The position numbers were made by a program, and so were the translations under genes. Shown piece after piece: positions 4,756 to 63,085 of a stretch of DNA of 64,000 nucleotides. The notes beneath the pieces were generated by a model that was not told where the DNA came from, made no database searches, and worked only from the letters and a program-made list of their open reading frames with translations. The stretch is from Eledone cirrhosa (taxonomy: Eukaryota): NCBI GenBank assembly GCA_964016885.1, contig OZ024748.1:45446001-45510000 (forward strand), read 5' to 3'. The first letter of the stretch is position 1, and every line of letters begins with the position of its first letter.

Positions 4756-5038
4756 CGATAATGACGATAATGATAATAATAATAATGGCCGTGGATTCAG
4801 TGAGAACTTCGGACATTTTGATTATATGTTCAGCTAACAACATTTAGGTTCTAATCAAGCACCCCCCCTACACACACAGACAGACAGACACACACACACA
4901 TTCACAAAGGCACACATACACACACATACACACACACACACTCACGCGCACACACATGTTTACGTATATTTATGCATACGTATATATTTCATAGGTATAA
5001 CTATATAGTAATATATATATATGTATAATATATATATA

Positions 5039-5122
<84 letters not shown>

Positions 5123-5181
5123 ATAATATATATATATACAATATATATATATATATATAATATATAATATATATATAAAAT

Positions 5182-5236
<55 letters not shown>

Positions 5237-5562
5237 CACAGACACACACACATATATATATATATATATACACATTTATATATTATACAGCAGTGTTAAT
5301 ACGTGCCCTGCGTACTGTATAATCGTGGAAATTGTATCATCGTTAATGTAGTTAGTTACCTCCCCTTGGCATTTTGAGGGCGTCTCTAAAACAATGCCTT
5401 CAGATAAGACGTGGCGGAGTTTGATTGTTACCATTTCACTTGAAATTAACCGGCGTTCATTACATGCTTGGAATCCATATGTAAGTAAATAGATATAAAT
5501 ATATATGTATATATATATATATATTATATATATATTATATATACATACATATGCATACATAG

Positions 5563-25062: not shown

Positions 25063-27135
25063 TACACACACACTAACACATACTAACACACACACTAACA
25101 CATACACTAACACACACACTAACATATACACTAACACACATACTAACACACACACTAACACATACACTAACACACACACTAACATATACACTAACACACA
25201 CACTAACACACACACTAACACATACACTAACACATACACTAACACCCACACTAACATATACACTAACACACACACTAACACACACACTAACACATACACT
25301 AACACATACACTAACACACACACTAACACATACACTAACACACACACTAATACATACACTGACATACACTAAGAAGGACTAACACACACAGATAACACAC
25401 ACACGGACATACACTAAGACACAGACTAACACACAGACTAACACACACACTAACACATACTAACACACACACTAACACATACACTAACACACACACTAAC
25501 ACATGCACTAACACACACACTAACACATACACTAACACACATACTAACACACACATAACACACACATTAACACACACACGAACACAAACATAACACACAC
25601 AGTAACACATACTAACACACACACAAACACACACACAAACACACACAGTAACACCCACACTAACACACACATAACACACACACTAACACATACTAACACA
25701 CACACTAACACACACACACACTAACACACACACTAACACACACGCTAACACATACACTAACGCACACACTAACACACATAACACACACACTAACGCATAC
25801 TAACACACACACTAACACACACATAACGCACACACTAACACACACATTGACATAGACACTAAGACAGACTAACACATACACATAACACACACACTGCACA
25901 TACTAAGACACAGACTAACACACACACATAAAACACTCACTGACATACACTAAGAAAGACTAACACACACACATAACACACACACATAACACACACACTG
26001 ACATACACTGAGACAGACTAACACACACACATAAACACACTGACACATACTAAGACAGACTAACACACACACATAACACACACACTGACATACACTAAGA
26101 AAGACTAACACACACACTGACAGACACTAAGACAGACTAACACACACACATAACACACACACACTGACATACACTAAGACACAGACTAACACACACACAT
26201 AACACACACACATAACACACACACTGACACACACTAAGACACATACTAACACACACACATAACACACACATGGACATACACTAAGACACAGACTAACACA
26301 CACACTAACACACACACTAACATATACTAACACACACACTAACACACACATAACACACACACTAACACATACTAACACACATACTAACACACACACTAAC
26401 ACACACATAACACACACACATAACACACACACTGACATACAATAAGACACAGACTAAAACACACACATAACACACACTGACATACACTAAGAATGACTAA
26501 CACACACACACACACACTAACACACACAATTACACACACACTAACACACACACGAATACACACACTAAGATATACACTAACACGCACACTAACACACCCA
26601 TTAACACACACACACGCACTAACACACACACTAACACACACTAACACACACCCACACACACTAACACACACCCACACACACTAACACACACTAACACACA
26701 CACACACACACTAACACACACAATAACACACACACTAACACACACACACACACACACACACAATAACACACACACTAACACACACACGAACACACACACT
26801 AACACACACACTAACACACACACTAACACACACATTAACACACACACTAACACACACACTAACACACACACTAACACACACACTAAAACACACACTAGCA
26901 TACACACTAACACACACTAACACACACACTAACACATCCACTAACACACACTAACACACACTAACACACACACTAACACATCCACTAACACACACACACT
27001 AACACACCCACTAACACACCCACTAACACACATATACACCGACTAGCATGCTCTCACACACACACACATACACGATAACACACACGCTAACACACACACT
27101 AACACATCCACTAACACACACACTAACACACATAT
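25063..27135. repeat. CA-derived minisatellite (about 12-bp unit ACTAACACACAC)
   Basis: Directly visible, about 2 kb. Confidence 0.93.
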
Positions 27136-32842: not shown

Positions 32843-32943
<101 letters not shown>

Positions 32944-32974
32944 TATATATATGTATATATATATAAATAAATAA

Positions 32975-33078
<104 letters not shown>

Positions 33079-33228
33079 TGTTATACTTTGGGAGGGTCAT
33101 GTTGCCAATAAGAAACACACGCACCGGTTGCTTTCACTTCAATTTATTATAATAAATTTATAAATTTAGGAATTTATTAATTTCCGGTTGGTTAGTTGGT
33201 TCCACAACCAGATGGTTGTTTATATATT

Positions 33229-33271
33229 GTCAAAGTTCTTTCGTCACACATTCTGTGACATCTTCAGTGAC
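33229..33271 (-). ncRNA. Type I hammerhead in the left arm of an inverted repeat (duplicate 35658-35700)
   Basis: gtca-CTGAAGA-tgtcac agaatgt gtgac-GAAAG aa CTT-tgac. Inverted arms at about 33075-33256 and 33343-33525. Confidence 0.8.
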
Positions 33272-34312
33272 TGGGGGTTCTTTTCTTTGTTTTTTGTGCC
33301 TCTCCTTTGTTCTGTCCTACGCCATATTGTTTTTGTAAGACACACAGAATGTGTGACGAAAGAACTTTGACAATATATAAACAACCATCTGGTTGTGGAA
33401 CCAACCAACCAACCGGAAATTTATAAATTCCTAAATTTATAAATTTATTATAATAAATTGAAGTGAAAGCAACTGGTGCGTGTGTTTCTTATTGGCAACA
33501 TGACCCTCCCAAAGTATAACAATATCGGTTTCAACACACGTTTTCAGATAAAGTATCTTGCTAAACAAATTCAGAAACGAAATATATATATATATATATA
33601 CTGCTTGACCACTTCCTGTTGCGCGCGCACCCCACATCTCTCCTCTTCCGACCATCGCTTCATGGAATACTCGTACGTAGAACTTGACCACTACAGAATC
33701 CACTAAACATCATCGGATTTTACCAACTTTTCAACCATCCTCTTACGTAATCACCTATATAACTCACCCACACACACACCCCAAATTTTTTTTTCTCCAC
33801 ACGCCACCTACACCCACAACACGCTTAAACCCCACACACACGTGCTTTCCACCACATATTTACACCCTCAGCCTCCTGATTCCTCTCCCCCACCCCTCTA
33901 TCCACACACGCACAGACACTCCGACCTACACCCCCCACACACACCTCTTCCTGAACATGCAACCCCGTTCTTCCCCCAACCCTTACTTCACATACACACA
34001 CACACACGTACACCTACACACACACCACCTTCAGCCCTCCCCGCTCGGACACCCCGTCTCCCTCTCCCCACTCCACCCGCCACCACCCCTACACACACCC
34101 ACACCCTTCCACCACCTGTTTTACCCCCCTTTTAATTTCAGTTTATTTTGATCATGCTTTTATATTTAAATTTATTTCATTCCTTGTATTTTGATCATGC
34201 TTTATTTTTATTTTTATTTTAATTTTTAATTTCATTCGCACCGTTTCCTTTCGCTATATGTCTCTCCACCACCACCCTACACACACTTTTAACTCTGTTC
34301 CCACACACTTCT

Positions 34313-34346
34313 CACCTGAGGAAGGGCTTATGCCCGAAACGTCGTT
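34313..34346 (+). ncRNA. Minimal hammerhead, family B (duplicate 36742-36775)
   Basis: cac-CTGAGGA-agggc ttat gccc-GAAAC-GTC-gtt. Confidence 0.75.
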
Positions 34347-34432
34347 CCCCACCAACACCCCACTCTCCAGAGCGTGAAATTAATAAACATTCGTTGTACT
34401 GCCTCTCTGTTTTGTTCCTGTTCAAATTTTTC

Positions 34433-34520
<88 letters not shown>

Positions 34521-34569
34521 CATTATATTAGCAAATGGAAACTATATTTATAAAACCATATTTATTTCA

Positions 34570-34625
34570 TTATACATATTTCAAGGGCCACCAAGGCAAA
34601 CTATGGTGCGCTTTCATCAGATAAA
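34570..34625 (-). ncRNA. Type I hammerhead (duplicate 36993-37048)
   Basis: tttat-CTGATGA-aagcgcacca tagtttgcct tggtggccctt-GAAA tat GTA-taa. Confidence 0.75.
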
Positions 34626-35303
34626 ATATAATATAGGTTTGTTTTATAAATAAATATTGACATACCCTGAAAAAAATGAAACCATTCTGGTTGGAATCTC
34701 CTGGATAGTAGAGTTATTAGATTTATTGTTGGTTTATTATGCAAATTAGTGTGGGAAAGGTTTAAATAACAGTATATTTAAATTAAGCCGTTGGAATAGG
34801 GAAAAAAGAAAGAAAGAGAAAAAAAAAGAAAAAAACGAAAGAAAGAAAAAAACCTTAGTATATTTAAGTGAGAGAGAATAGCGTAATTTTGAGAGAAGAG
34901 GCGAAGAAATAAATATATCTAATGTTTAATTAATACATTTGATTAAATGCTTAATTAATAATTTATCAATTCAATCCGTAGTTTAAATGTTTAAATGTGT
35001 ATGGTAGATTATTAAAGTTGAGACCTATATATTATTAAAGAATATATATTATTAAAATATATATTATTAGAAAATATGTTATTATTACAAACCATATATA
35101 ATTTTATTAAATATTAATTAATTATTAAAAAAAATTTGTAAGTTTGAAATATCCGAATATTAAGCTCATGGACATTCCGAGAGTTTACAAACTCCGAGAG
35201 TTTGCTAATATATTGTATATTTACTCCAATAATTTGTTGAGTGCTTTATATCAGTTATAAAAATATTTTGCTTGTTGTATCCTAACAAATTTAATATAAC
35301 CTC

Positions 35304-35383
<80 letters not shown>

Positions 35384-35413
35384 TATATATATGTATATAT
35401 ATATAAATAAATA

Positions 35414-35507
<94 letters not shown>

Positions 35508-36862
35508 TGTTATACTTTGGGAGGGTCATGTTGCCAATAAGAAACACACGCACCGGTTGCTTTCACTTCAATTTATTATAATAAATTTATAAATTTAGGA
35601 ATTTATTAATTTCCGGTTGGTTAGTTGGTTCCACAACCAGATGGTTGTTTATATATTGTCAAAGTTCTTTCGTCACACATTCTGTGACATCTTCAGTGAC
35701 TGGGGGTTCTTTTCTTTGTTTTTTGTGCCTCTCCTTTGTTCTGTCCTACGCCATATTGTTTTTGTAAGACACACAGAATGTGTGACGAAAGAACTTTGAC
35801 AATATATAAACAACCATCTGGTTGTGGAACCAACCAACCAACCGGAAATTTATAAATTCCTAAATTTATAAATTTATTATAATAAATTGAAGTGAAAGCA
35901 ACTGGTGCGTGTGTTTCTTATTGGCAACATGACCCTCCCAAAGTATAACAATATCGGTTTCAACACACGTTTTCAGATAAAGTATCTTGCTAAACAAATT
36001 CAGAAACGAAATATATATATATATATATACTGCTTGACCACTTCCTGTTGCGCGCGCACCCCACATCTCTCCTCTTCCGACCATCGCTTCATGGAATACT
36101 CGTACGTAGAACTTGACCACTACAGAATCCACTAAACATCATCGGATTTTACCAACTTTTCAACCATCCTCTTACGTAATCACCTATATAACTCACCCAC
36201 ACACACACCCCAAATTTTTTTTTCTCCACACGCCACCTACACCCACAACACGCTTAAACCCCACACACACGTGCTTTCCACCACATATTTACACCCTCAG
36301 CCTCCTGATTCCTCTCCCCCACCCCTCTATCCACACACGCACAGACACTCCGACCTACACCCCCCACACACACCTCTTCCTGAACATGCAACCCCGTTCT
36401 TCCCCCAACCCTTACTTCACATACACACACACACACGTACACCTACACACACACCACCTTCAGCCCTCCCCGCTCGGACACCCCGTCTCCCTCTCCCCAC
36501 TCCACCCGCCACCACCCCTACACACACCCACACCCTTCCACCACCTGTTTTACCCCCCTTTTAATTTCAGTTTATTTTGATCATGCTTTTATATTTAAAT
36601 TTATTTCATTCCTTGTATTTTGATCATGCTTTATTTTTATTTTTATTTTAATTTTTAATTTCATTCGCACCGTTTCCTTTCGCTATATGTCTCTCCACCA
36701 CCACCCTACACACACTTTTAACTCTGTTCCCACACACTTCTCACCTGAGGAAGGGCTTATGCCCGAAACGTCGTTCCCCACCAACACCCCACTCTCCAGA
36801 GCGTGAAATTAATAAACATTCGTTGTACTGCCTCTCTGTTTTGTTCCTGTTCAAATTTTTCC

Positions 36863-36943
<81 letters not shown>

Positions 36944-37726
36944 CATTATATTAGCAAATGGAAACTATATTTATAAAACCATATTTATTTCATTATACAT
37001 ATTTCAAGGGCCACCAAGGCAAACTATGGTGCGCTTTCATCAGATAAAATATAATATAGGTTTGTTTTATAAATAAATATTGACATACCCTGAAAAAAAT
37101 GAAACCATTCTGGTTGGAATCTCCTGGATAGTAGAGTTATTAGATTTATTGTTGGTTTATTATGCAAATTAGTGTGGGAAAGGTTTAAATAACAGTATAT
37201 TTAAATTAAGCCGTTGGAATAGGGAAAAAAGAAAGAAAGAGAAAAAAAGAGAAAAAAACGAAAGAAAGAAAAAAACCTTAGTATATTTAAGTGAGAGAGA
37301 ATAGCGTAATTTTGAGAGAAGAGGCGAAGAAATAAATATATCTAATGTTTAATTAATACATTTGATTAAATGCTTAATTAATAATTTATCAATTCAATCC
37401 GTAGTTTAAATGTTTAAATGTGTATGGTAGATTATTAAAGTTGAGACATATATATTATTAAAGAATATATATTATTAAAATATATATTATTAGAAAATAT
37501 GTTATTATTACAAACCATATATAATTTTATTAAATATTAATTAATTATTAAAAAAAATTTGTAAGTTTGAAATATCCGAATATTAAGCTCATGGACATTC
37601 CGAGAGTTTACAAACTCCGAGAGTTTGCTAATATATTGTATATTTACTCCAATAATTTGTTGAGTGCTTTATATCAGTTATAAAAATATTTTGCTTGTTG
37701 TATCCTAACAAATTTAATATAACCTC

Positions 37727-37956: not shown

Positions 37957-38002
<46 letters not shown>

Positions 38003-38080
38003 TAGATAGATAGAGATTTATATACATAAATGTGTGTGTATGTAAAAGGTAAACAGAAATAACAACACAATCGGTACAGT

Positions 38081-48503: not shown

Positions 48504-48563
<60 letters not shown>

Positions 48564-48564
48564 G

Positions 48565-48614
<50 letters not shown>

Positions 48615-48619
48615 AATCT
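48504..48619. repeat. (TATC)n microsatellite, 5' flank of the Tx1 cluster
   Basis: Directly visible. Further segments at 54262-54329, 55193-55217 and 60880-60888. Confidence 0.95.
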
Positions 48620-48761
48620 AGCTGTCGTCTGTTCTACAGTGTGGATGTAATTCACATCGCGCAGAAGTTTTGTTCAAATTTATTGCGGAATTACCCCTCC
48701 TAGAGGTGAAAAACCTGTTTAAAAAATTTTGTGGGAAAAAAATTTCAATCGTCTGACAGAA

Positions 48762-50662
48762 ATGTTAAACGAAGCGAACGAAAATAGTGGTGGGGGGACA
48801 GCGGTAAGAGTTGTAAGCTCGCACGCTTTAGTCCCCCCTTCCTTCCCAACTAACGTCATAGAGAAGGAAGGAAAAAATAAAATAAAAACAGACGAATCTG
48901 CGGAGAAAAATGACGAAAACACAAATCTGGACATGGATTCCAACAACGAAAAAAAAAAAATTTGATAAATTGCATGACAATACTAACACCACAAACAAAG
49001 ACACAACAAACACAAAAATAACATTTGAAAATAACACCATAACAGAAAGCAAAGCAGACGACAGAGTCAGCAAAATTTCATTTGCACAAACAACAAAGAA
49101 ATCTTTGACATATATACCTGAAAATATTTCAGATGTGGCACGAAGAATCACAGACGCCAAACAATACATAAGTGAAGGAGAGAATGGTATTTTATCGGTA
49201 AAAATGCCTCAAGAACTCACCAAAGACATTGAAGGTCGAATGGTCGTGTTCCGCACCATCAACAACACTTCAAAAAAACCTGAACAGCCAACTCAGGCAG
49301 ATATCAAAACAGTACTCACAGAAGTACTTAATGAAACCACTTTCATAAGAAAAGACAAACTGTATGGAAGCCTAGCAATTATTATGAAGAACGAATCGGC
49401 GGCAAAAAAATGTGCTTTGTCACCGATTCGTTCGAAAAATTTTACCTTTTATCCATCTTATATGGGTAAAAGAACTCAACGCATATGGCTGGATGCAATG
49501 ATGCCAGATGTGGACTACTGCTGGCTCATAGCTGGCTTCATCGATCCAGTGAATGACAACGTGATTTCCATTGGGAAAACCACAGGCAATGCGTTCAGTG
49601 GAACAGGTATAGAGCTGGTAGTGCAAATGAAGCCTGAACGCATCGCCCAAATACCCGACAGAATCCTATTAGAGGGCCACGGGTATATAAACATTAGCGT
49701 GGAGGGGAGAAGGCCGTCCTGTCATATCTGTGCAGGCAGAGGGCACCTGAAGGCCGCTTGTCCCCAACTCAACAAAAAGAAAACCCTGCTACCAACACCA
49801 GCTCCACCACCACCACCACAACAGATAAACAAACAAAACTCAGTCCCACCCAACCCGTCCCTCAGTAAAACTACACCACCACCACAACACAAACAGTCAC
49901 AACACATTACCCCAAAACAAAATACAGGCCACCCAACCCCTCACTCAATAAAACAACACAACCACCGCAGACACAACACACAACACAGTCTAACATAGTG
50001 ACATCCATCTCCCCCACAAAGAAAACCAACACGGAAACATTACCAGCAAACATACCTCTTCCCTCCAACACTGAAGATAACCCAACGAATTCGGAGGAAG
50101 AAACGGAGTCCTTCAGACAGATTAAAAGGAAAAAAAGAAAACATGTGCAAAACACACAAGGCCAAACAACCCCCACCCAAATCTCAACACAATCCAACAA
50201 AACAGAAAATACCCCTCCAGCAACAAACAAAACAAACCTGCCCCTCCCCTCTTCGAAACACTCACACCATCCGAAAAAAAGACATTACACTATACTTACA
50301 TCAACAGAAACAATAATAAATTAAATGAACTCATATACAATAATCCTTCGGTACAAACCGAAGGTGTAAACTTTGTTTCTTCAGAAAACTACCCACATTT
50401 AAAATTAATAAAGATCCCAATGAACCTCTACCAAAAACTAAAAAAGGATTTTAAGGAGGACGTAGGACCACCCTCTGTCAAACCCATAAACCGCGTCCTA
50501 CTAAAAAGCTTTCCCCCTCCCCTTCCCCTCCCCAACACAACTCCAAACACCCCAACCCCACCACACACTGACGACCCCACACCACCACAAGACACCCCTT
50601 CACCCAACACCCCCGACCCCATGGAAGTCGTGCGACCCGAACCCCGGGAAGCGGAAAGGTAG
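48762..50662 (+). pseudogene. Tx1 ORF1 (gag-like, CCHC knuckle), frameshifted
   Basis: VEGRRPSCHICAGRGHLKAACP and a P/T-rich tail. Homologous to 55421-57265. Confidence 0.82.
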
Positions 50663-50695
50663 GTCTCTACACTCTTCTTTGGCTCTGCCGCCCAC

Positions 50696-53600
50696 ATGGA
50701 TGTGTTAAGAGTAGGATGTTTGAATGCACGTGGCCTGGGCTCAACTTGGAAGCAAGCAAAGCTTCTAAATGACCTCAGGTCATGTGGTATAAATGTAATG
50801 GTTATCTGTGAGACTCGAATCAGCGTCCTGCGGCAGCTGGCCTCTACCTTCGATGACTTTGAGGTGCATGCATCTCTCTGTCAACCTGGAGGTGGGGGTG
50901 GGGTTGTCGTACTGCTGCAAAAACACCTGGGTCTTGCCGTACAGGTTGTGCACTCGGACCCGGAGGGTCGTTTGTTGGTGCTAGACGTTGGCAGTAGTGA
51001 AGGTGCGGCCTTGAGACTGGTCGCCGTCTACTCCCCTTTCGGAGCTGAACGGCCCGACTTCTTCCAGCGTTTGGAGACTTTTCTGGGAACGTCGCGTTCC
51101 CTGCTTCTAGCGGGGGATTGGAATGACATCCTAAATGCACGTTGGGACTATGCAGGAGCATGTCCTAATAGAGGGGGGTGTAACAGCCTCAAGGGGTTAC
51201 TCGACCGTTTTAACTTCGTCGATAGATATCGACTAGATTTTCCAACTGTGCCTACCTGGACTTGGAGAAACCACAGTGGTCAATCTAGATCGTACTTAGA
51301 TAGATTCTTAGTTAGAAGTAAGGATAGGGACATATTAAGCTGTCCAGAAATGCGCACGGTTGGCTACACGGATCACAAATTAGTGACCTGCGTAGTCAAT
51401 CTCGAGAAAACACATAAACAGGGTCCCGGTTACTGGAAACTTAATTTGTCTTTACCGGCAAAAGAGACTTACAGAAACCGGATTAGCAGATTAGTTAAGG
51501 AGAGGTTGACGGGTGCAATCGTCAACAACCGATGGTGGGCATCTCTCAAAAGAGAGATTAGAACAGAATCAATAAGTTATAGCAAGATGTTAGCTGCCGA
51601 TAGGAATAGAAACGAGAAAGAATTAACAGGAAAATTAGAAGAGGCAATCAAGAGCGAAGATGTGGCCAGAGTGCTGGCATCGAGGACGGCCTTGAACCAG
51701 TTTTTCGATGCAAAGCACGAAGGCTGCGTCATTCGAAGTAAAATACGTGCTCTAGGTAATGAGGGGGCCAAAGCCGTTGGCTGGGCCCGCGTGACAGAAG
51801 CTAAGAGTGGAAATCGATCCACCATCCGGTCGTTGCAAGACGAAGATGGACGGGTGATCCGGGAGCCTAAGCAGATGTGCGAGGCCTTTCAAAGGCACTT
51901 TGCCCGATTGTTCGGGGGAGGCGAGGGTCCGGGCGGGGGCGTGTATTTCGGCCCATACCTCGACGACCTGCCGCGTCTCTCGAGCGAAGAGGCAGAGTCC
52001 TGCGAGGGACCAATCTCGGCTGATGAGATCGGAGATGCGCTGAGCCAATGCAGCAGACGCAAATCTCCAGGTCTCGATGGTATACCTTACGAACTTTATT
52101 TAGCAATGCCGGTCTTCTTCTCCGAACTCCTCGAAGTCGTCTACTGCAATTGGCAGCAGAACGGGAGAATTCCTTGTTCTGTAGCCAAGGACGTAGTCAC
52201 GCTGGCGAGGAAGGACGAGAACAAGGGAGATAGTATAAATAATTTTCGGCCCATAACCCTGCTAAACACAGAGTTAAAGATTTTGGCCAAGGTGTTAGCA
52301 AAGAGGTTGGCGCTTGTCGTGGGTGGCCTGGTGGGAGATGCGCAGACATGTGCTATCCCATCCAGGTCCATTCATGATAACCTCCACCTCATGCGATATA
52401 TCATAGAGAGGGTTGGCAATAAACCCGGCTTCGGTGGGGCCCTGATCAACTTGGATCAGTCTAAGGCCTTCGATAGGGTCGACCATGGTTACCTGGATGC
52501 GGTGCTAGCGGCGGCTGGTTACGGTCCTGTTTTCAGAGGCTGGATCACTGCCTTACATAGCAACCACATCTGTTCTAGGATCAAGGTGAACGGCTACCTT
52601 TCGAAGCCGTTCGAAATCACACGATCCATTCGACAGGGGTGCCCTCTCTCCTCCCTTCTGTACGTATTGACTCTCGAGCCTTTACTGAGGAAGTTGGAGT
52701 TGTTGCAGGGTATCCCCCTGGAACCAGGATTGAGCAAAGCGGTGTCGGCCTACGAAACTGAACCGGGAAAAATCCATCGGGCTGCAACTCGGAACGTGGA
52801 GAGGCAGACAGATGCCTCCCGACGGTGTCGTCGGACACTGGACGGAGGGCCCGGTAAAGTTGCTTGGGGTCTGGTTTGGACCGGACCTCCAGGTGGAAAA
52901 GAACTGGAACGAGGTTACGAACAAGGTGTTTGCACTAACCCAGAAATGGGCCAAGTGTAAGCTGTCCCTAAAAGGCCGGGCGGAGGTGGCGAACATTTAC
53001 ATAGCGTCCGTCACTTACTACCGCCTGACTGTCGTGCCTTGCCCTAAGGAAACACTCACCACCATGGAACGCATGCTCTTCCAATTTCTTTGGAAGAAGC
53101 GCCCTCCTATGGTGAGAAGATCCATCTGCTGCCAACAACCTTCGAAAGGAGGGCTGGGGATGCCGTGGTTGATGATGCGTAGGCACGCATTAAGGCTACG
53201 GCACCTACAGGTATTCCTCACTAGTCAACCGGTGTGGGCTCCGTTCGTGAAACGAGCCTTTCCGAGACTCGTCTCGCTCACCGAGCTACAGTCCTGGGTC
53301 AAGCAAAGATCCGGAAAACTGGGAGACTGGCACACTGAGTGTGCTCAGGCGCTCAGGGCTCTCTGGCAAGCGGGCCAGGCCGTCGGTGGAGAATCCACCT
53401 CATCATTCTATAGAGGGCTGGTGGCTAGCAGGGGCGATGACACCCTTGGAGAGTCGCTGGACATGGAAGAGGACGAACTGGCCAGCCTGTTCGGTAGGAT
53501 TTTCGGCCCGGGACCATTGGACAACTTCCAGAAGTCACTAGCCTGGCAGTGCTACCGGGGGGCTCTACCCGTTCGAGAGAGGCTCTACGGACACGGGCGC

Positions 53601-54044
53601 CCGGGCAGGGATCCCTCAAAAAAGATTTGCCCTAGATGCGTGCGTCATGAAGAAACCGTTGCGCACGCATTGGTGCAATGTCCGGGCGTGGCTGATCTGT
53701 GGGGCTACGCCGAACGACTGCTGTCGCGGGAGGCGCCGATTCAATTGACCGCCGAGTCCGTGATGACAATCAAACCGCCTCCCCTCTTCACAAAGGAAGC
53801 AAAGGCGGTTTTTCTGTGCGTAATAGCCATGCTGAAAGAGGTTGTTTGGTGGACACGATTGAAAGGTCTGAGGTCAGGCAACTTCCTCTCTGGCCATAGT
53901 CTGGTCTACTTCTTCCGATATCACTTCGGAAGAAGGATAAGAATGGAGAGAGAGGTGCTTGGCCACAGGCAGTTTTATGAAAGGTGGGTGATAGTGGCGA
54001 GAATGGCTCGTGTAAATGGGCCTTCTCTGTATACCATCCTGTAG
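50696..54044 (+). pseudogene. Tx1 ORF2: AP endonuclease, reverse transcriptase, C-terminal zinc finger; YADD deleted
   Basis: LNARGL, GDWN, SYLDRF, TDHK; KSPGLDG, FRPITLLN, LDQSKAFDRV, IRQGCPLS; CPRC...ETVAHALVQC. Frameshifting deletion at about 52755. Confidence 0.93.
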
Positions 54045-54261
54045 GTAAAGAAGTAAAGGAGAGGGGAGCACCTTCTCCATGTGCTCCCCGGGCAAAGGAT
54101 TGCACACTTTTTCGGGGGTGTGTACAACCCCCATCACGTCCCCACGCTTTTGAGGTTATTTTCGATTATTTTCATTTTATACCCTTTTTACTCGATTGTA
54201 TGTAAACTCCCCCTTTGTATTTGTCCCTTCTTTTTATGCCTTTATGGTAAATAAAGAAATA

Positions 54262-54329
<68 letters not shown>

Positions 54330-55192
54330 CAAGTCCTCGGGGAAACTCTAGGCATCGAGGAGGACGAACTGACCAGTCTGTTCGGGAGGACTTTCCGTCC
54401 AGGGCCTATGGATAACTTCCAGAGGTCTCTGGCCTGGCAGTGCTACCGAGGAGCTCTAACTGTTCGAGACAAAATCTACATGCACGGACACCCTGACAGA
54501 GATCCTGCCAAAAAGACCTGTCCAAGATGCGAGCAGAACATCGAAACCGTTCTGCACGCAATTGTACAGTGCCCAGGGGTGACCGACCTGTGGAATTATG
54601 TCGAACAGCTACTGTCACGTGTGGGACGCAACCAGTTGTCAGCCGAGTCCATCGTGAGGATCACCCCGCTGCCTGCATCTGCCTTCATTTAAGAATAAAG
54701 TAGAGGCGGTTTGCCTCCGTCTCCTGGCTATGGCGAAAGAGGTAATATGGTAGCCGAGGTTAAAAGGACTGAGGGCAAACACCTTTCTCTCCGGACAACA
54801 ACTTATCCCCTTCTTTAAGTACCACTTCAGAAGGAAGGTGAGGGTGGAGAGAGAGGTGCTACACCCCAGTAAATTCGCTGAAAGGTGGGTGAATGTGGCG
54901 AAAATGGCCCGAATGAATGGGCCTTCTCTGTATATAAACCTGTAGGTTGAGGAAGATAAACAGAGGGAAGACAGAAACACCTACAAAACGTGTTCCTGGT
55001 GTTGAGGGTTGTTCTATCCACGGGGTGTAAAACAACCCTGCAGTAACTTTCCCCCCTACTGGGGATTTCAATTGTTATTTTATTATATATAGTTTATTGT
55101 TATTTATTAATGTTAAATTTATTTTTATGTAAAACCACCGCCGTCACGTCTTGTAATGTCCCATTTGTGTACGCCCCTGTGGTAAATAAAGA
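54330..55192 (+). mobile_element. 5'-truncated Tx1 copy 2 (diverged subfamily)
   Basis: MDNFQRSLAWQCYRGAL...CPRC...ETVLHAIVQC. 3' UTR ending ggtaaataaag, between (TATC)n tracts. Confidence 0.9.
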
Positions 55193-55420
55193 TATCTATC
55201 TATCTATCTATCTATCTTGATAGAGTAAGACACGCTTCACATCGGCTCCGCTATTCCATCGGGATTTACCCTTACTATAGTAAGTACCGGATAAATTTTT
55301 CAGTGCAACACATTTGGAACACTAACCCCTGTTATTTAGGGAAACATTTTTGCATTTACCCCCTTTTTAGGGGGTAAAATAAATATCTATTTTTTGCCGA
55401 AAAATTTCTTTCTTGGCAGC

Positions 55421-57265
55421 ATGGCGGAAAAGATGGCAGACATGTCTGCCATTAGCTCTGCCACGCCCCCCAAGTCTGAAGAACAAAAAATAATTACAAC
55501 AAAATTAGACAACGAAACAAACAAGGAAAATGAAAAAACAAATGTTAAGGAAAATGAGCAAACGGAAAACAAACAAACAGAAAATAATACAGATAACAAC
55601 AGGGCAACTTTCGCCCAGAAAACAAAACAATCCATAACATACACACCAATTGACTTAACTGCCGCCAGAGAAAAACTGGCCGAATCGAAAAAACAAATAG
55701 TCTTGGGGGAGAACGGAATGTTTTCCATTAACTCCCCCCCAGAATTCAAGAAAGCCAGAACAGAGAGCACAGTTCTCTTCAGAACTATACTGAACCAGAC
55801 AAGAAAGCCAGCACAGCCCAGCCAAATGGAAATAGAGTGGTCCTAAAAGACTATATGAAGAATATTCTCTTCATACGAAAGGACCGACTCTATGACAGCA
55901 TTTCGGTCCTAACAAAAGACAAGGAAACGGCGGAGAAGCTTTCCCTAAGCCCACTCTCATCGACAACATACAGCTTCTATCCCTCCTACATGGGTAGAAG
56001 AACACAGAGAGTAAAAGTAAAAACAATGCTGACCACAATGGACTTCTGGTGGGCTATTGCTGGCTTCATAGACATGGGCGAAGACACAATGCTGTCAATG
56101 GGGAAGGCAACTGGAGATGCGTTCCTGGGAATGGGCCTCGACATACTAGTCCAAATGAGGCCCGAAAGAATAGCACAAATCCCGGATCGCATCTGGCTGG
56201 ATGACCTTACCCCAATAGATATAATTGTAGAGGGGAGAAGACCAGCATGCTATTTATGCATGAAAAGGGGACACGTTAAGGCTAACTGCCCGAAACGTAT
56301 CCCCCAAAAAGGACTATTGCTCACACCCACCACAAACAGTACACCAACACCACCCACCTCCAAAAATACACTAATACCACACACAGCAAACAAAATACAG
56401 ACACCACCAACCACAAACACAACACAAACATCACCACCACCAGCACCAAACACAAGCACGACACAAAAATCACCACCGCCAACCACAACACAAACATCAC
56501 CACCACCATCACCAACCACAAGCACGACACAAACATTACCACCACCACCACCACCACAAAACCCATTCCAAACAAATAATAAAAAAAAAACAGTAACAAA
56601 TCTACCCCTCCCGCAAAAAATAACAACCACACAACACGTCCCTCCCACCTAGCGCTGAAGAGTTTCCCCCCACTTCTGAAGAAGAAGGAGGAGAAGCCTT
56701 CAGACAAGTTAAAAGAAAAAAAAGAAAGCACACACCCAGCACACCACAAATAACCCACACACAAACACCAACTCCAATAAAAAACACCCCACCCTCAACA
56801 AACAAAAATAAATCTGCGCCTCCCCTCTCCGAAACATTGACAGCATCACAAAAAAAGACATTGCAATACACATATATAAATAAAGAAAACAAAAAACTGT
56901 TTAAATTAATAAACAATAGCCCTTTGGTGCAGACCGAAGGGCCAAACTTTATCTCAACAGAGAACTTCACCCATTTAAAAATGATAAAGGTCCCTCTGGA
57001 CCTTTATCGTTCCTTAAAAGAACAATTTAGACAGGACGTGAGCCCCCCCCCCCCCTGTTTAAAACCGTTAAATCGCGTCCTCTTGAAAGATTTCCCCATA
57101 ACCTCCCCTCTCCCCGACACAACTCCAAACACCCCAACCCAACCACACTCGGGCACCCCCACACCACCACAAAACATCCCTCCACCCAACACACCTGACG
57201 CCATGGAAATTACACAACCCGGAGAGGTAAGTGCTTTTCTTTCTTCACTTTCAACACCAAAATAG
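55421..57265 (+). pseudogene. Tx1 ORF1, frameshifted
   Basis: FYPSYMGRRTQR, VEGRRPACYLCMKRGHVKANCP. Confidence 0.82.
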
Positions 57266-60200
57266 ATCAATTGAGAGTTGGCTGTTTGAACGCGCGTGGC
57301 CTGGGCTCAGCTTGGAAGCAAGCAAAGCTACTAAGTGACCTCAGGTCACGAAGTATAGATGAGATGGTTGTTGGCGAGAGTCGGATCAGCAGCGTGCGAC
57401 AGCTGGCTCCCGCCTTCGATGACTTTGAGATGCACGCATCTCTCTGTCAACCCGGAGGCGGGGGGGGGGGGAGTTGCCGTACTGCTGGATAAACGTCTGG
57501 CTCTCGACGTACAGATTGTTCACTCGGACCCGGGGGGTCGATTACTGGTGCTGGACGTCGGAGGTGGTGAAGGCGGGGCTTTCAGACTGGTCGGTCTTTA
57601 TGCCCCCTTCGGGGCTGAATGACCCGACTTCTTCCAGCGTCTGGAGACTTTTCTAGGAACGTCGCGTTCCCTGCTTTTAGTGGGGGACTGGAATGGAATC
57701 CTAGATGCGCGTTGGGACTATGCAGGGGCATGTCCAGATAGAGGGGGGTGTAGCAGCCTCAAGGGGTTACTCGATCGATTCGACCTGGTCGATAGATTTC
57801 GACTAGATTGTCCAACTGCGCCAACCTGGACCTGGGCAAACCGCAGTGGACAATCTAGATCGTACCTAGATAGGTTTTTGGTTAGGAGTAAGGATAGGGA
57901 CGTATTTAGTTGTCCAGAATTGATCATGGTTGGCTATTCAGATCACAAATTAGTGACCTGCGTGGTCAACCTTGATAGAACGCATAGACAGGGTCCCGGT
58001 TACTGGAAGATGAACTTGTCCTTGCCGGCAAAGAAAGATTACAGGAACCGGATTAGTAGCTTAGTTAAGATGCGGTTGACGGGAGCGATTGTCAACAGTA
58101 GGTGGTGGGTATCTCTAAAGAGAGAGATTAGAGTAAGTTCGATAGGTTACAGTAAGGAACTAGCGGCGAATAGAAATAGGAAGGAAAGGGAGTTAACAGA
58201 TAAACTAGAAGAGGCGATTAGGAGCGGAGACGTAGCCAGAGTGTTAGCGGCGAGAACGGCGTTGAGCCAGTTCTTTGACGCGAAGCACGAAGGCTGCGTT
58301 GTCCGAAGTAAAATACGTGCTTTAGGAAACGAGGGGACCAAAGCTGTTAGCTGGGCCCGCGTGACAGAAGCCAAGAGTGGGATTAAATCCACCATTCGGT
58401 CTTTGTGAGACCAGGATGGACGGGTGATCCTTGAACCTGAGCGGATGTGCGAGGCCTTTCAAAGGCACTTTGCTCGACTGTTCGGAGGGGGCGGGGGGCC
58501 GGACGGGGTGTGGACTTCGGTCCATACTTTGACGGTCTACCGCGTCTTTCGAGCGGCGAAGCGGAGTGCTGCGAAAGGCCAATCACAGCCACTGAAATCG
58601 GGGAAGCGCTCAGCCAATGCAGCAGACGCAAATCTCCGGGTCTCGATGGTCTACCATACGAACTTTATTTAGCTATGCCGGTCTTGTTCTCCGAACTCCT
58701 CGAGGCTGTCTATTGCAACTGGCAACAGAACGGGAGAATTCCCTGTTCTGTGACCAAGGGCGTGGTCACGCTAGTGAGGAAGGACGAGAGCAAGGGGGAC
58801 GACTTAAGTAACTTTAGGCCCATAACTCTGCTGAATGCAGAGTTACAGATTTTGGCCAAGGTGTTGGCGAAGAGGTTGGCGCTTGTGGTGGGTGGTTTGG
58901 TGGGAGACGCGCAGACATGCGCTATCCCGTTCAGGTTCATTCACGACAACCTCCACCTCATGCAATACATCATAGAGAGGGTTGGCAACGAACCCGGCTT
59001 TGGTGGGGCCCTGATCAACTTGGATCAATCTAAGGCGTTCGATAGGGTCAACCATGGTTACCTGGATGCGGTGCTAGCGGCGGCGGGCTTCGGACCCGTT
59101 TTCAGGGGCTGGATTTCTGCCATGCACAGTGGCAACATCTACTCTAGGATTAAAGTAAACGGCTACCTCTCGGAGCCGTTTCAAATCACCCGGTCCATCA
59201 GACAGGGGTGCCCCCTCTCCTCCCTTCTGTACGTATTGACTCTCGAGCCACTGCTGCGGAAGTTGGAGTTGCTGCGGGGCATACCCCTGGAACCGGGATT
59301 GCACAAAGCGGTCTCGGCCTATGCCGACGACGTAACAGTAATGGTGGCGGACGCCTCGGAAATCGGGGCGATCGCCACCCTACGTGGAGGGGCAAACCGT
59401 GGAGGGGCAAACCGATGCCGTTAGACGTTGTCGTCGGGCGGTGGACGGAGGGCCCGGTGAAGCTGCTCGGGGTCTGGTTCGGACCGGACCTCCAGGTGGA
59501 GAAGAATTGGGGCGAGGTGACGAGCAGGGTATTTGCGCTGACCCAGAAGTGGGCCAAGTGCAAACTATCACTGAAAGGTCGGGCGGAGGTGACGAACGCT
59601 TACATAGCGTCCGTCATCTGCTACCGCCTGACCGTCGTGCCTTGCCCCAAGGAAAAGATCACCATCATGGAACGCATGCTCTTCCAGTTCCTCTGGAAGA
59701 AGCGGCCTCCCATGGTGAGGAGATCCATCTGCTGCCAGCACCCTTCGAAAGGAGGGCTGGGTATGCCGTGGCTGTTGATGCGTAGGCACGCATTGAGGCT
59801 ACGGCATCTACAGGTATTCCTCACCGGTCAGCCGGTGTGGGCCCCGTTTGTGAGGCGAGCTTTCCCACAGCTCGTCTCGCTCACCGAGCTGCAATCCTGG
59901 GTGAAGCAAAGACCGAGAAAACTGGGCAACTGGCACACTGAGTGTGCCCAGGCGCTCACGGCTATCTGCAAGCGGACCCGACTGTCAGTGGAGAATCCAC
60001 CTCGACATTCTATAGAGGGCTGGTGGCTAGCAGGGGCGACGACACCCTTGGAGAGTCGCTAGGCATGGAGGATGACGAACTGGCCAGCCTGTTCGGTAGA
60101 ACTTTCGGCCCGGGACCCATGGACAACTTCCAGAGGTCCCTAGCCTGGCAGTGTTACCGGGGGGGCTCTACCCGTTCGAGAAAAACTCTACAGACACGGG

Positions 60201-60647
60201 CGCCCGGGCAGGGATCCAGCGAAAAAGATCTGTCCCAGATGCGTGCGCGACGAGGAAACCGTTGCGCATGCACTGGTACACTGCCCGGGCGTTGCCGATC
60301 TGTGGGGCTACGTCGAACGACTGGTGTCGCGTGTGGTGCCGATTCGATTAACCGCCGAGTCTGTGGTGAACATCAAGCCGCCGCCTCCCTTCAGAAACGA
60401 AGCAGAGGCGGTCTTTCTGTGCGTAATAGCCATGATGAAAGAGGTTGTGTGGTGGACGCGCCTGAAAGGTCTGAGGTCGGGTGACTTTCTCTCCGGCCAT
60501 CACCTGGTTTACTTCTTCCGATACCACTTCGGAAGAAGGATCAGGATGGAGAGAGAAGTGCTTGGCCCCAGACAGTTTTATGAAAGGTGGGTGAAAGAAG
60601 CGAGAATGGCTCGTGTAAATGGGCCTTCTCTCTACATTGTTCTGTAG
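57262..60647 (+). pseudogene. Tx1 ORF2 (APE-RT-zf), multiple stops and frameshifts
   Basis: LNARGL, GDWN, SDHK, KAFDRV, QGCPLS, AYADD retained. Deletion plus 15-bp duplication at about 59383-59412. Confidence 0.92.
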
Positions 60648-61032
60648 GTGAAGAAGTGAAGAGGAAAGGGGGAGCGCCTCCTCTCTGGCTTCCCCCGCGA
60701 AAAGGGTTGCACACTTTTCGGGGGTATGTGTAATCCCGAACACGCCCCCTCCCTTTTGAGGACTTTTTATTATTATATTATTATTGTTATTCCTTTTTTC
60801 TTTACTCGATTTATGTAAACTCCCCCACTGTGTATTTGTCCCCTTCTTTTGTGCCCTCGTGGCAAATAAATAGAAATTTATCTATCTCTTTACGATGGAC
60901 ACATGTGCTGAGCTCGCTCGGTAAGTTTCGTTTAAATTTAACTGGAAATTGTGAACTGTAAACTTTCATTTTTGTACCATTTTGTAGAGGGACTGCCAGG
61001 TCAAATTTTGATCTGGTCAGTCTCTCAAAATA

Positions 61033-63085
61033 ACCACCCTACACCACACCACACCACACTACACTACATCACACCACACCACACTACACCACACCACACC
61101 AGATTATACCACACTACACCATACTATACTACACCATACTACACTACATCATACTATAGTACATCACACTACACTACACCACACTATACCACATCACACC
61201 ACACTACACCACACTACACTACACCACACTACACCACACTACACTACACTACACTACACCACACCACACCACACTATACTACACCACACTACACCACACT
61301 ACACTACACTACACCACACTACACCACACCACACTACACCAAACGACACTGCACTATATTACACTACACCACACTACATCACACTACACCACACTACACT
61401 GCACTACAGCACACTACACCACACTACACTAGAGCACACTACACCACACTAGACTACACCTCACTACACCACACAACACCACACTACAACATACCACACC
61501 TCATCATACCACACCACACTACACCACACTATACTACACCACACGACACCACACTACACCACACCACACTATACTACACTACACCACTCTACACTACACC
61601 ACTCTACACCACACTATACTACACCACACTACACCACACTACACCAAACCACCCTACACCACGCCACACTACACCACACTACACCACACTATACTATACC
61701 ACAGCATACCACAATACACCACACGACACCACACTACACCACACTACACTACACCACACCACACCACATTACACCAAACTATACTACACCACACAACATC
61801 ACACTACACCACACCACCCTATACCACACCACACTACACCACACCACACCACACTATACTATACCACACCACACTACACTACGCCACACTACACTACACT
61901 ACACAACATTACATCACACTACACCGCTCCACACTACACCACACCATACCACACCACACTACACCACACCACACTACACCACACTACACCACATTATACT
62001 ACACCACACCACACTACACTACACAACACTACACTACACCACACTACACCACACTACACTACACCACACCACACTACACCACACTACACCACACCACAGT
62101 ACACTACATCACAGTACACCACACCACACCACACCATACTACCCCACACCACACTATACAACACCACACTACACTACACTACACTACAAAACACACCACC
62201 ACACGACACCACACTACACCATACCACGCTACACTACACTAAACTACACCACACTACACTACACCACACTACACCACACTACACTACACTACAATACACT
62301 ACACTACACCACACTACACTATATTACACTACACTACACCACACTACACTACACCACACCACACTACACTACAATACACTACAGCACACTACACTACACT
62401 ACACCACACTACACTACACTACACCACACTACACTACACTACACCACACTGCACCACACTACACTACAATACACTACACTACACCACACTACACTACACA
62501 ACACCACACTACACTACAATACACTACACTACACCACACTACACTACACTACACCACACCACACCACACTACAATACAATACACTACACTACACCACACT
62601 ACACTACACTACACCACACTACACTACACTACACTACACAACACCACACTACAATACACTACACTACACCACACTACACTACACCACACTACACTACAAT
62701 ACACTACACTACACTACACTACACAACACCACACTACACCACACTACACTACACTACAATACACTACACTACACCACACTACACTACACTACACCACACT
62801 ACACAACACTACACTACACTACACTACACTACACTACACTACACTACACCACAATACACTACACTACACCACACTACACTACACAACACCACACTACACT
62901 ACAATACACTACACTACACCACACTACACTACACTACACTACACTACACCACACTACACCACACTACACCACACTACACCACACTACACTACACTACACT
63001 ACACTACACTACACTACACTACACTACACTACACTACACTACACCACACTACACTACACAACACCACACTACACCACACTACACT
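61033..63085. repeat. Pentanucleotide satellite (ACACC/ACACT)n
   Basis: About 2 kb. Fully explains the 726-aa H/Y/T ORF. Confidence 0.95.

Follow-up and report, generated by a model that had tools for sequence, protein, structure and literature searches.

How do diverged retrotransposons come to lie head to tail on one strand, each set off from the next by the same tetranucleotide repeat? The question is raised by a 64-kb window of a 3.0-Gb assembly (C8:45446001-45510000; positions given without a contig refer to this window), in which positions 48504-61032 hold, in order, (TATC)~28, a 5.6-kb long interspersed nuclear element (LINE), (TATC)17, a 0.86-kb 5'-truncated LINE, (TATC)6, a 5.7-kb LINE, (TATC)2, and, last, 145 bp from the 5' end of a fourth LINE. 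We conclude, with a probability of roughly 0.88, that the stack consists of LINEs of the apurinic/apyrimidinic endonuclease (APE) type, L1/Tx1-like, and that their lineage integrates into (TATC)n/(GATA)n with a single orientation and a single phase, its endonuclease most likely nicking the GATA strand after GATA and priming reverse transcription there. The LINEs of the stack (El1, El2, El3, and the fourth fragment) and the repeats between them are the following.

48504..48614, + strand: upstream (TATC)n of about 28 units, one of them a TGTC variant, flanking El1 on its 5' side (Tandem Repeats Finder (TRF) block 48504-48620, 29 units, 96% matches).
48615..54261, + strand: El1, a LINE of the El1-type subfamily, full length though defective, starting AATCTAGCTGTCG (also given as AATCTAGCTG) and ending GGTAAATAAAGAAATA.
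54262..54329, + strand: (TATC)17, perfect, the spacer between El1 and El2 (TRF, sequence).
54330..55192, + strand: El2, a 5'-truncated LINE of a third subfamily, comprising residues ~958-1156 of open reading frame 2 (ORF2) and the 3' untranslated region (UTR), ending GGTAAATAAAGA; tblastn matches of 58-70% at the amino acid level, with zf-RVT.
55193..55216 (TRF block to 55217), + strand: (TATC)6, perfect, the spacer between El2 and El3 (TRF, sequence).
55217..60878, + strand: El3, a LINE of the El3-type subfamily, full length though frameshifted, starting TTGATAGAGTAAG (also given as TTGATAGAG) and ending GGCAAATAAATAGAAATT.
60879..60886, + strand: two leftover TATC units between El3 and the fourth element (sequence).
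60887..61032, + strand: 5' terminal fragment (~145 bp) of a fourth subfamily ('El4-type'), 97.5% identical over 158 nt to the 5' end of the L125 copy.

All of these elements, the fourth fragment included, lie head to tail on the + strand. The subfamilies of El1, El2, and El3 differ, at 70-81% nucleotide identity: El1 and El3 are 81.1% identical over 4220 nt, and El2 is 70.3% and 72.0% identical to El1 and El3, respectively. As positions 60887-61032 match the 5' end of a fourth subfamily, of which the L125 copy runs on into an ORF1, the stack has four members; El4-type homology stops at the start of a 15/20-mer satellite (61039-63085). A pattern scan of the window returns 45 matches to (TATC)4 with at most one mismatch, against 0.03 expected. 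Forty-three of these are on the + strand in three blocks, concordant with TRF, and the other two form a degenerate 4-unit site on the - strand (37997-38016). Matches to intact ORF1 and ORF2 proteins in a tblastn search of the window are confined to 49273-60644, with no other copy. A first-pass annotation of this DNA had described three diverged + strand elements, the truncated one included, each bounded by (TATC)n on both sides, within the sole long (TATC)n array of the window and without a comparable copy elsewhere in it. TRF, scan, and sequence agree on the bounded elements, to which we add the fourth member; the scan bears out the sole array, the degenerate - strand site aside, and the tblastn search the lack of a further copy.

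The window as a whole is rich in microsatellites, with 12.8% of its bases (15.4% once the LINE stack is excluded) falling in perfect repeats whose period is at most 6. The motifs are many (TA, AC, TGG, AGT, AAC, GTT, and others), and the GC content is 36.7%. Given such a background, closeness to a repeat is not in itself distinctive; the stack stands out by the motif, strand, and phase that its junctions show.

We examined junctions across the genome, which was searched with the 5' and 3' ends of El1 (1027 and 896 candidates) and of El3 (659 and 1628 candidates). For each end query 40 matches were scored and the best-scoring 30 loci kept, each set of 30 including the window's own copy. The El1 5' end is common to at least 40 scored of the 1027 candidates and its 3' end to 40 scored of the 896; the El3 5' end is 99-100% identical in 40 scored of the 659, and the El3 3' end in 40 scored of the 1628. 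A 5' flank was counted as carrying the repeat if at least two TATC units occur in the element's orientation within 30 nt upstream of the 5' end. This holds for 28/30 full-length El1-type copies and 30/30 El3-type copies, compared with 85 of 20000 background 30-nt windows from positions 1-48000 and 23 of 3224 from distal locus ends, either strand being allowed (0.4-0.7%).

The 3' flank starts TATC in 28/30 copies of each type and starts TATCTATC in 20/30 El1-type and 24/30 El3-type copies. The element body ends ...AATAAA(N3-9) and target DNA, TAT(C/A)T, starts at once; no poly(A) occurs at any of 60 3' junctions read. Truncation of the 5' end is seen in 11 of the 30 El1-type 3'-end loci, with break points at element positions 4856-5388, and in 9/11 a TATC repeat stands exactly at the truncation point. 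Tabulating sampled junctions, along the lines proposed in the first-pass annotation, thus does not show most copies with TATC confined to the 3' end and random 5' flanks, the repeat being present on the 5' side in 28/30, 30/30, and 9/11 copies.

Target-site duplications (TSDs) indicate to which side of the junction the repeat belongs. Both flanks are available for 21 El1-type copies, namely 11 truncated copies, four full-length copies retrieved whole, and six of 10 with separately retrieved 5' ends; the remaining four of the 10 5' ends are absent at the expected distance and are left out of the count. A TSD was taken as informative where it extends at least 5 nt past its periodic lead, into unique DNA. 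Such a TSD is present in 11/21 copies (L063, L055, L039, and L058 are examples), is 15-22 bp long (median 20), and starts TAT(C/A)T directly after ...GAAATA. Nine of the 21 copies lie wholly within repeats, where the TSD is uninformative, and one has no TSD. Some TSDs run across the 3' edge of an array, as at L051 with TATCTATCTAAGGCGGGTAAA, while L063, L039, and L058 are off-target insertions at sites without any TATC repeat, and the L055 site is a single TATCT. No extra TATC unit is found between ...GAAATA and the TSD in any of the 11 informative copies (0/11).

Since these TSDs begin right at the element end and reach unique DNA, the TATC repeat is target DNA and not an element-encoded tail. 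The hallmarks of target-primed reverse transcription are present, in the form of variable 5' truncation (11/30 3'-end loci) and TSDs (11/21 copies). From the TSD starts we deduce that the bottom strand is nicked first, at 5'-...GATA^G, a position that would map on the + strand between C (once T) and TAT(C/A)T. The family targeting GATA repeats that had been inferred from the window alone is supported at the scale of the genome, in 5' flanks (58/60), 3' flanks starting TATC (56/60), and TSDs (11/21).

At their 5' ends, the two subfamilies examined appear to differ in how the insertion is completed. El1-type copies behave like insertions in which the second cut is made about 20 bp downstream of the first, wherever that falls. 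El3-type copies are in phase on both sides, in the arrangement (TATC)a, TTGATAGAG...GAAATT, (TATC)b, with unique DNA not duplicated, and all 30 of their 5' junctions read ...TATCTATC followed by TTGATAGAG. Among 11 El3-type copies whose downstream array is short, at 1-5 units (the window copy, three of nine pairs, and seven of seven in another set), none duplicates the unique DNA that follows (0/11). The flank and the El3 5' end together form an inverted repeat, TCTATC-TT-GATAGA, at 55209-55225 in the window and at all 30 El3-type junctions (L065-L094). For El3-type elements, either the second cut would also be repeat-specific, or the RNA would start in the upstream repeat such that the end of the cDNA pairs with the array. 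The first bases of the El3-type element are themselves a GATA-strand copy of its own target. An apparent asymmetry of El3-type flanks, short upstream and long downstream, was dropped, the copies having been picked for short upstream arrays.

How much of the available target is occupied was estimated from the arrays rather than from the elements. The genome contains 127,148 matches to (TATC)8, overlapping in-phase matches counted, of which the first 100 listed make up 23 arrays in C1:2.2-22.2 Mb, or about one per Mb. As an unbiased sample we took the first 18 (TATC)>=8 arrays on contig C1, with a cluster of five set aside. Eleven of the 18 carry a LINE of this lineage in the locus, 10 of them joined end to array in the canonical way and one (L133) inverted and irregular; the other seven are free. 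At C1:22.19-22.21 Mb, five arrays about 5.8 kb apart delimit a stack in which four full-length elements each represent a different subfamily; their ORF2 identities to an intact ORF2 protein (P0001) are 95-96, 82, 75-78, and 81%.

Stacking is frequent. Another copy lies within 150 nt on the same strand in 51 of 120 junction flanks (42%), and only on the opposite strand in none; on the upstream side alone, a copy lies within 150 nt of 24/60 full-length copies (10 El1-type, 14 El3-type). These counts are based on BLAST and supersede a fuzzy-motif count of upstream copy ends (12 and 18), which was too permissive. In one locus (L178) three El3-type copies occur in tandem. The several subfamilies suspected from the window also extend to the genome, where 98 independent 3' ends abutting arrays divide into nine clusters at 90% nucleotide identity (30, 26, 18, 10, 7, 4, 1, 1, and 1 members), all of which end directly on (TATC)n. 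Across the clusters, identity of the ORF2 C terminus to El1-type falls to about 56%. Within the 3'-terminal 80 nt, 25 columns are invariant across nine subfamily representatives, and AATAAA stands 3-9 nt before the junction in 9/9. RNAalifold, applied to the nine subfamily 3' ends, returns one 3-bp hairpin with no covariation, leaving a conserved structure unsupported.

These observations suggest how a stack may grow. The APE endonuclease would nick the GATA strand (bottom strand, 5'-GATA^G), and the reverse transcriptase (RT), positioned on the conserved 3' block, would start exactly at the element's last base. Insertion would leave repeat on both sides and, for El1-type elements, would also duplicate 4-5 units, splitting the array and multiplying the landing sites. 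Because repeat stays on both sides, the site would remain a target, and later insertions, of whichever subfamily, would come to lie between resident copies without ever interrupting one; the asymmetry of the target would give every copy the same orientation. The predicted outcome is non-nested, same-strand stacks such as the one in the window. As to where the specificity resides, we lean only slightly towards the endonuclease as its main seat.

The alternative that survives best concerns this last point. Base pairing, and not the endonuclease, could mainly set the specificity, the UAUC 3' end of a read-through RNA annealing to the nicked GATA strand. With AATAAA 3-9 nt ahead of the junction, transcription would run on into the TATC repeat downstream of the donor and terminate there, and the position of this signal is invariant across all nine subfamily representatives. 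The lack of poly(A) at the junctions fits such a model, as does a match of at least 3 nt (TAT) between every informative TSD and the sequence behind donor copies. However, off-target reverse transcription began exactly at the first unit, with no units added, and this exact start favours an initiation set by protein on the conserved 3' block over free annealing in any register. Moreover, the endonucleases of target-specific LINEs, Tx1L included, are described as cleaving the insertion site specifically (PMC8869645). On balance we consider pairing as the main determinant doubtful, though the pairing and endonuclease models are not exclusive and can both hold.

A passive association is highly improbable by comparison. 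It would have LINEs and TATC arrays gather in repeat-rich, low-recombination DNA, or stacks arise by tandem or segmental duplication. The microsatellite content of the window and its 2.4-kb tandem duplication (32864-37723) are in keeping with this idea, and the homotypic El3-El3-El3 tandem at L178 could be a product of unequal exchange. Against it, the junctions are base-precise, in a single phase and a single orientation, far commoner motifs (TA, AC) are unused, and TSDs surround single copies. Members of the stacks in the window and on C1 belong to different subfamilies (70-81% nucleotide identity; ORF2 75-96% amino acid identity), which indicates independent insertions. Least probable of all, to the point of being hardly tenable, is that (TATC)n is an element-encoded 3' tail that seeds microsatellites at randomly chosen sites in the manner of CR1/L2/RTE-like elements, with the 5' repeats of the window being tails of upstream neighbours: all subfamilies do end directly on TATC repeats, two of the three window 5' flanks double as the 3' side of the preceding element, and snake CR1 LINEs are described as seeding (ATA)n and (AATAG)n through their tails (PMC3157835), but a TATC 5' flank is present in 58/60 full-length copies when an upstream neighbour lies within 150 nt in only 24/60, the repeat stands at the point of truncation in 9/11 truncated copies, and the 11 informative TSDs start at the element body with no added units, including those at the three TATC-free sites (L063, L039, and L058).

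Insertion into (TATC)n by a target-specific lineage remains our preferred explanation, and several observations weigh against it. The junction samples are skewed toward young copies, being the best 30 of 659-1628 candidates and no census. The repeat is missing from 2/30 El1-type 5' flanks and from 2/11 truncated copies, and some insertions are at TATAT or single TATCT sites, so the specificity is strong but not absolute. El1-type repeats are long upstream and short downstream (median ~12 versus 3 units), an asymmetry for which the TSD accounts only in part. At L133 (C1 ~5,362,000), (TATC)13 is followed by the 3' end of an inverted copy lacking its last ~12 nt; this locus breaks the one-orientation rule and may be a rearrangement. 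Among the listed sequencing runs with El1-type sequence, none is an RNA run. Finally, a C|TAT(C/A)T site alone would be too short to explain the use of arrays by more than 90% of copies, which leaves room for RNA-DNA pairing or cooperative binding.

What kind of LINE has adopted this target? The coding features of El1 in the window are as follows.

49273..50659, + strand: ORF1 region of El1, frameshifted (tblastn with the P0002 protein, three high-scoring segment pairs, 82-95% identity).
50663..54041, + strand: ORF2 of El1 (APE, RT, CCHC), broken near 52740-52754 by a deletion and a frame change (Pfam, tblastn).
50756..51376, + strand: APE (Exo_endo_phos) of El1 ORF2 (Pfam PF03372, E 4e-9, residues 32-238).
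52229..52699, + strand: RT of El1, N-terminal part ahead of the break (Pfam PF00078, E 1e-17).
53532..53702, + strand: C-terminal CCHC motif (zf-RVT) of El1 ORF2 (Pfam PF13966, E 8.5e-6, 26.8 bits, cut-off 27.5).

From the sequence alone, the endonuclease had been placed at about 50696-51400, close to the Pfam domain at ~50756-51376. Exo_endo_phos, RVT_1, and zf-RVT are all found in El1 and El3, and zf-RVT in El2. Relative to other copies, El1 is missing two segments, one of about 84 bp (after 48690) and one of about 87 bp (near 52754), and has frameshifts in addition; residues 1-697 and 722-1156 of P0001 match its ORF2 at 96-97% identity in tblastn. The ORF matches of El3 are spread over several frames, reflecting frameshifts. 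El3 also contains a private 15-bp tandem duplication in its RT region (59383-59414; CGTGGAGGGGCAAAC x2.1), which other copies lack.

One natural copy on the - strand (L062) encodes both an intact ORF1 of 464 aa (P0002) and an intact ORF2 of 1156 aa (P0001). Its ORF2 contains an APE domain above the Pfam cut-off (PF03372, E 7e-9), an RT (PF00078, E 1.6e-26), and a zf-RVT match (PF13966, E 8e-6) which at 26.8 bits falls under the gathering score of 27.5; a CPRC...H...C string is present in P0001. The ORF1 protein has a CX2CX4HX4C knuckle, and a Pfam search with it gives zero matches, Transposase_22 included. In a phmmer search of the PDB, the alignment of ORF2 with human L1 ORF2p is collinear and covers residues 7-866 (E 1.3e-49), from the endonuclease through the RT and past it, while R2-type proteins match in the RT region alone (E 6e-19). 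The endonuclease catalytic motifs LNARGL, ICETR, GDWN, LDRF, and TDH (N, E, D-N, D, and D-H) align with those of human L1 ORF2p, as does the YADD of the RT. [quoted passage not shown]

Within that group, membership of the Tx1 clade is plausible, with indirect support from the collinearity of ORF2 with L1 ORF2p and from the CCHC knuckle of ORF1. The absence of poly(A) and sequence-specific insertion into repetitive DNA are typical of this clade, although not exclusive to it. An ORF1 of the RRM/CCHC type, in place of Transposase_22, is described as 'consistent with the Tx1 clade' (PMC5203782). The closest named homologue comes from the octopod Argonauta hians, a hypothetical protein with 66% identity across the RT region, and an unnamed NCBI protein is 73% identical; none of the database matches carries a clade name. 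L1-Tx1 is reported as a recently active LINE class in Octopus vulgaris, with 13 families and 421 insertions (PMC13282606), as part of the ancient coleoid repeat set (PMC8967140), and as the L1-group clade present in molluscs (PMC10294476); the passages of these surveys that deal with it name no insertion target.

The family is not confined to one genome. El1 3'-region 31-mers are present in sequencing runs (X1-X8) of several organisms (A-E), with word shares of 0.69, 0.42, 0.34, 0.28, and 0.22. A 617-nt contig of organism B spans window positions 53909-54245 (337 nt) with nine differences and three gaps, the repeat flanks falling outside the comparison. Such near-identical El1-type 3' sequence in several organisms suggests a family that is either common to related species or has moved between them. 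Among more distant relatives on metagenome contigs (80 loci, 24-45% identity), 16 were scanned and had no TATC arrays, only two (AT)n, a result that is uninformative because the relatives are distant and the contigs break at repeats.

A full-text literature search found no GATA/TATC-specific LINE, with Repbase Reports, Dfam, most subscription journals, and the supplements of PMC4494074 outside its reach, so an earlier description is possible. We regard GATA/TATC as a new target for a known type of microsatellite-specific LINE. The closest parallels in target choice are Kibi and Koshi, teleost Tx1 LINEs described as inserting into (TC)n and (TTC)n (PMC4494074, PMC3812793). Like the present elements, they are of the APE type, have the repeat on both flanks, lack poly(A), and comprise several families per target; compared by description, they differ in that the target here is a tetranucleotide, TATC/GATA, whose strands are mixed in purines and pyrimidines. 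Kibi and Koshi are also elements of fish, whereas the nearest named homologue here is from a cephalopod.

Crocodilian Tx1 families, for which a preference for (TTCC)n or (TTTC)n is described (PMC4494074), share with the present lineage a tetranucleotide preference in L1/Tx1-type LINEs and several families per target. The threshold for target specificity given in that work is more than 20% of flanks (PMC4494074), compared with 93-100% here (5' flanks 58/60, 3' flanks starting TATC 56/60). As far as those families are described, they differ in motif, while here the phase of the 3' junction is fixed and multi-subfamily stacks are frequent (42% of flanks). The endonuclease of Tx1L is reportedly the subject of a paper by Christensen et al. 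2000. Tx1L of Xenopus laevis, described as having an APE endonuclease that nicks its target specifically (PMC8869645), is the likely model for the origin of the specificity, with the difference that its target is the transposon Tx1D and not a microsatellite.

Microsatellite specificity is also described in other clades, for (TAA)n by Dong (R4 clade) and for (ACAY)n and (AC)n by Waldo and Mino (R1 clade) (PMC3812793), but the present ORF2 is much nearer to L1 ORF2p than to R2-type proteins (E 1e-49 versus 6e-19). Snake1 CR1 (PMC3157835) resembles our lineage as a LINE family adjoining a large proportion of one AT-rich motif's arrays; there the repeat is described as the element's own tail, unlike the target DNA on both sides that TSDs show here. 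Plant SaTar arrays of Mutator-like elements (MULEs) (PMC5907723) are likewise described as non-nested linear multimers of unrelated family members with microsatellite between them, although SaTar MULEs are non-autonomous DNA transposons, and here the elements are autonomous retrotransposons in one orientation. Relative to these systems, the pervasive heterotypic stacks and the two 5'-junction modes are some unusual features.

We tentatively propose that these elements represent an undescribed, old, and diversified LINE lineage, probably of the Tx1 clade and probably molluscan, that reads the GATA repeat, has settled in the majority of long (TATC)n arrays of a 3-Gb genome, and increases the number of its own landing pads. 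Its sister subfamilies would have two solutions for the second strand, a fixed cut about 20 bp downstream and an in-phase join via the TCTATC-TT-GATAGA inverted repeat. Target-specific LINEs are natural cases of integration at safe harbours and are under study as tools for directing gene insertion to a chosen site. A lineage with a simple 4-nt repeat as target, and with diverged subfamilies that follow the same 3'-junction rule with two 5' outcomes, offers a tractable system that could separate the roles of endonuclease, 3' UTR, and RNA-target pairing in target choice. For annotation, the majority (11/18) of the long (TATC)n arrays sampled here, in a small but unbiased set, are LINE junctions, and about 40% of copies are in head-to-tail stacks, which repeat maskers and assemblers can mistake for nested or tandemly duplicated DNA. 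A transposon may in this way multiply a microsatellite by splitting and duplicating its target rather than by seeding from a tail.

TATC arrays also adjoin other repeated sequences. At four unrelated loci (L006, L026, L027, and L156), the sequence that ends on the TATC repeats is recurrent but not a LINE (...GGAATTCCTTTTATTAATATAATCTTCTAT...CACCCGTGTATAT); it may represent a further repeat family or a non-autonomous partner sharing the target. In the 3' flanks of the unrelated loci L051 and L121, short TATC arrays are followed by GCGGGTAAAATTCCCGAGATCCATGGA..., which is probably a further repeat abutting such arrays.

The window includes three other repetitive features. The 15/20-mer array behind the fourth element is 2 kb long and consists of ~100-136 copies of a CTACACTACACCACACTACA-like unit with 81-82% matches, and a comparable 2-kb array of a 12-mer (ACACACACACTA x177) is present at 25064-27132. 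The tandem duplication at 32864-37723 has a unit of ~2.43 kb (32864-35300 versus 35304-37723, 99.1% identical), with short inverted matches within it.

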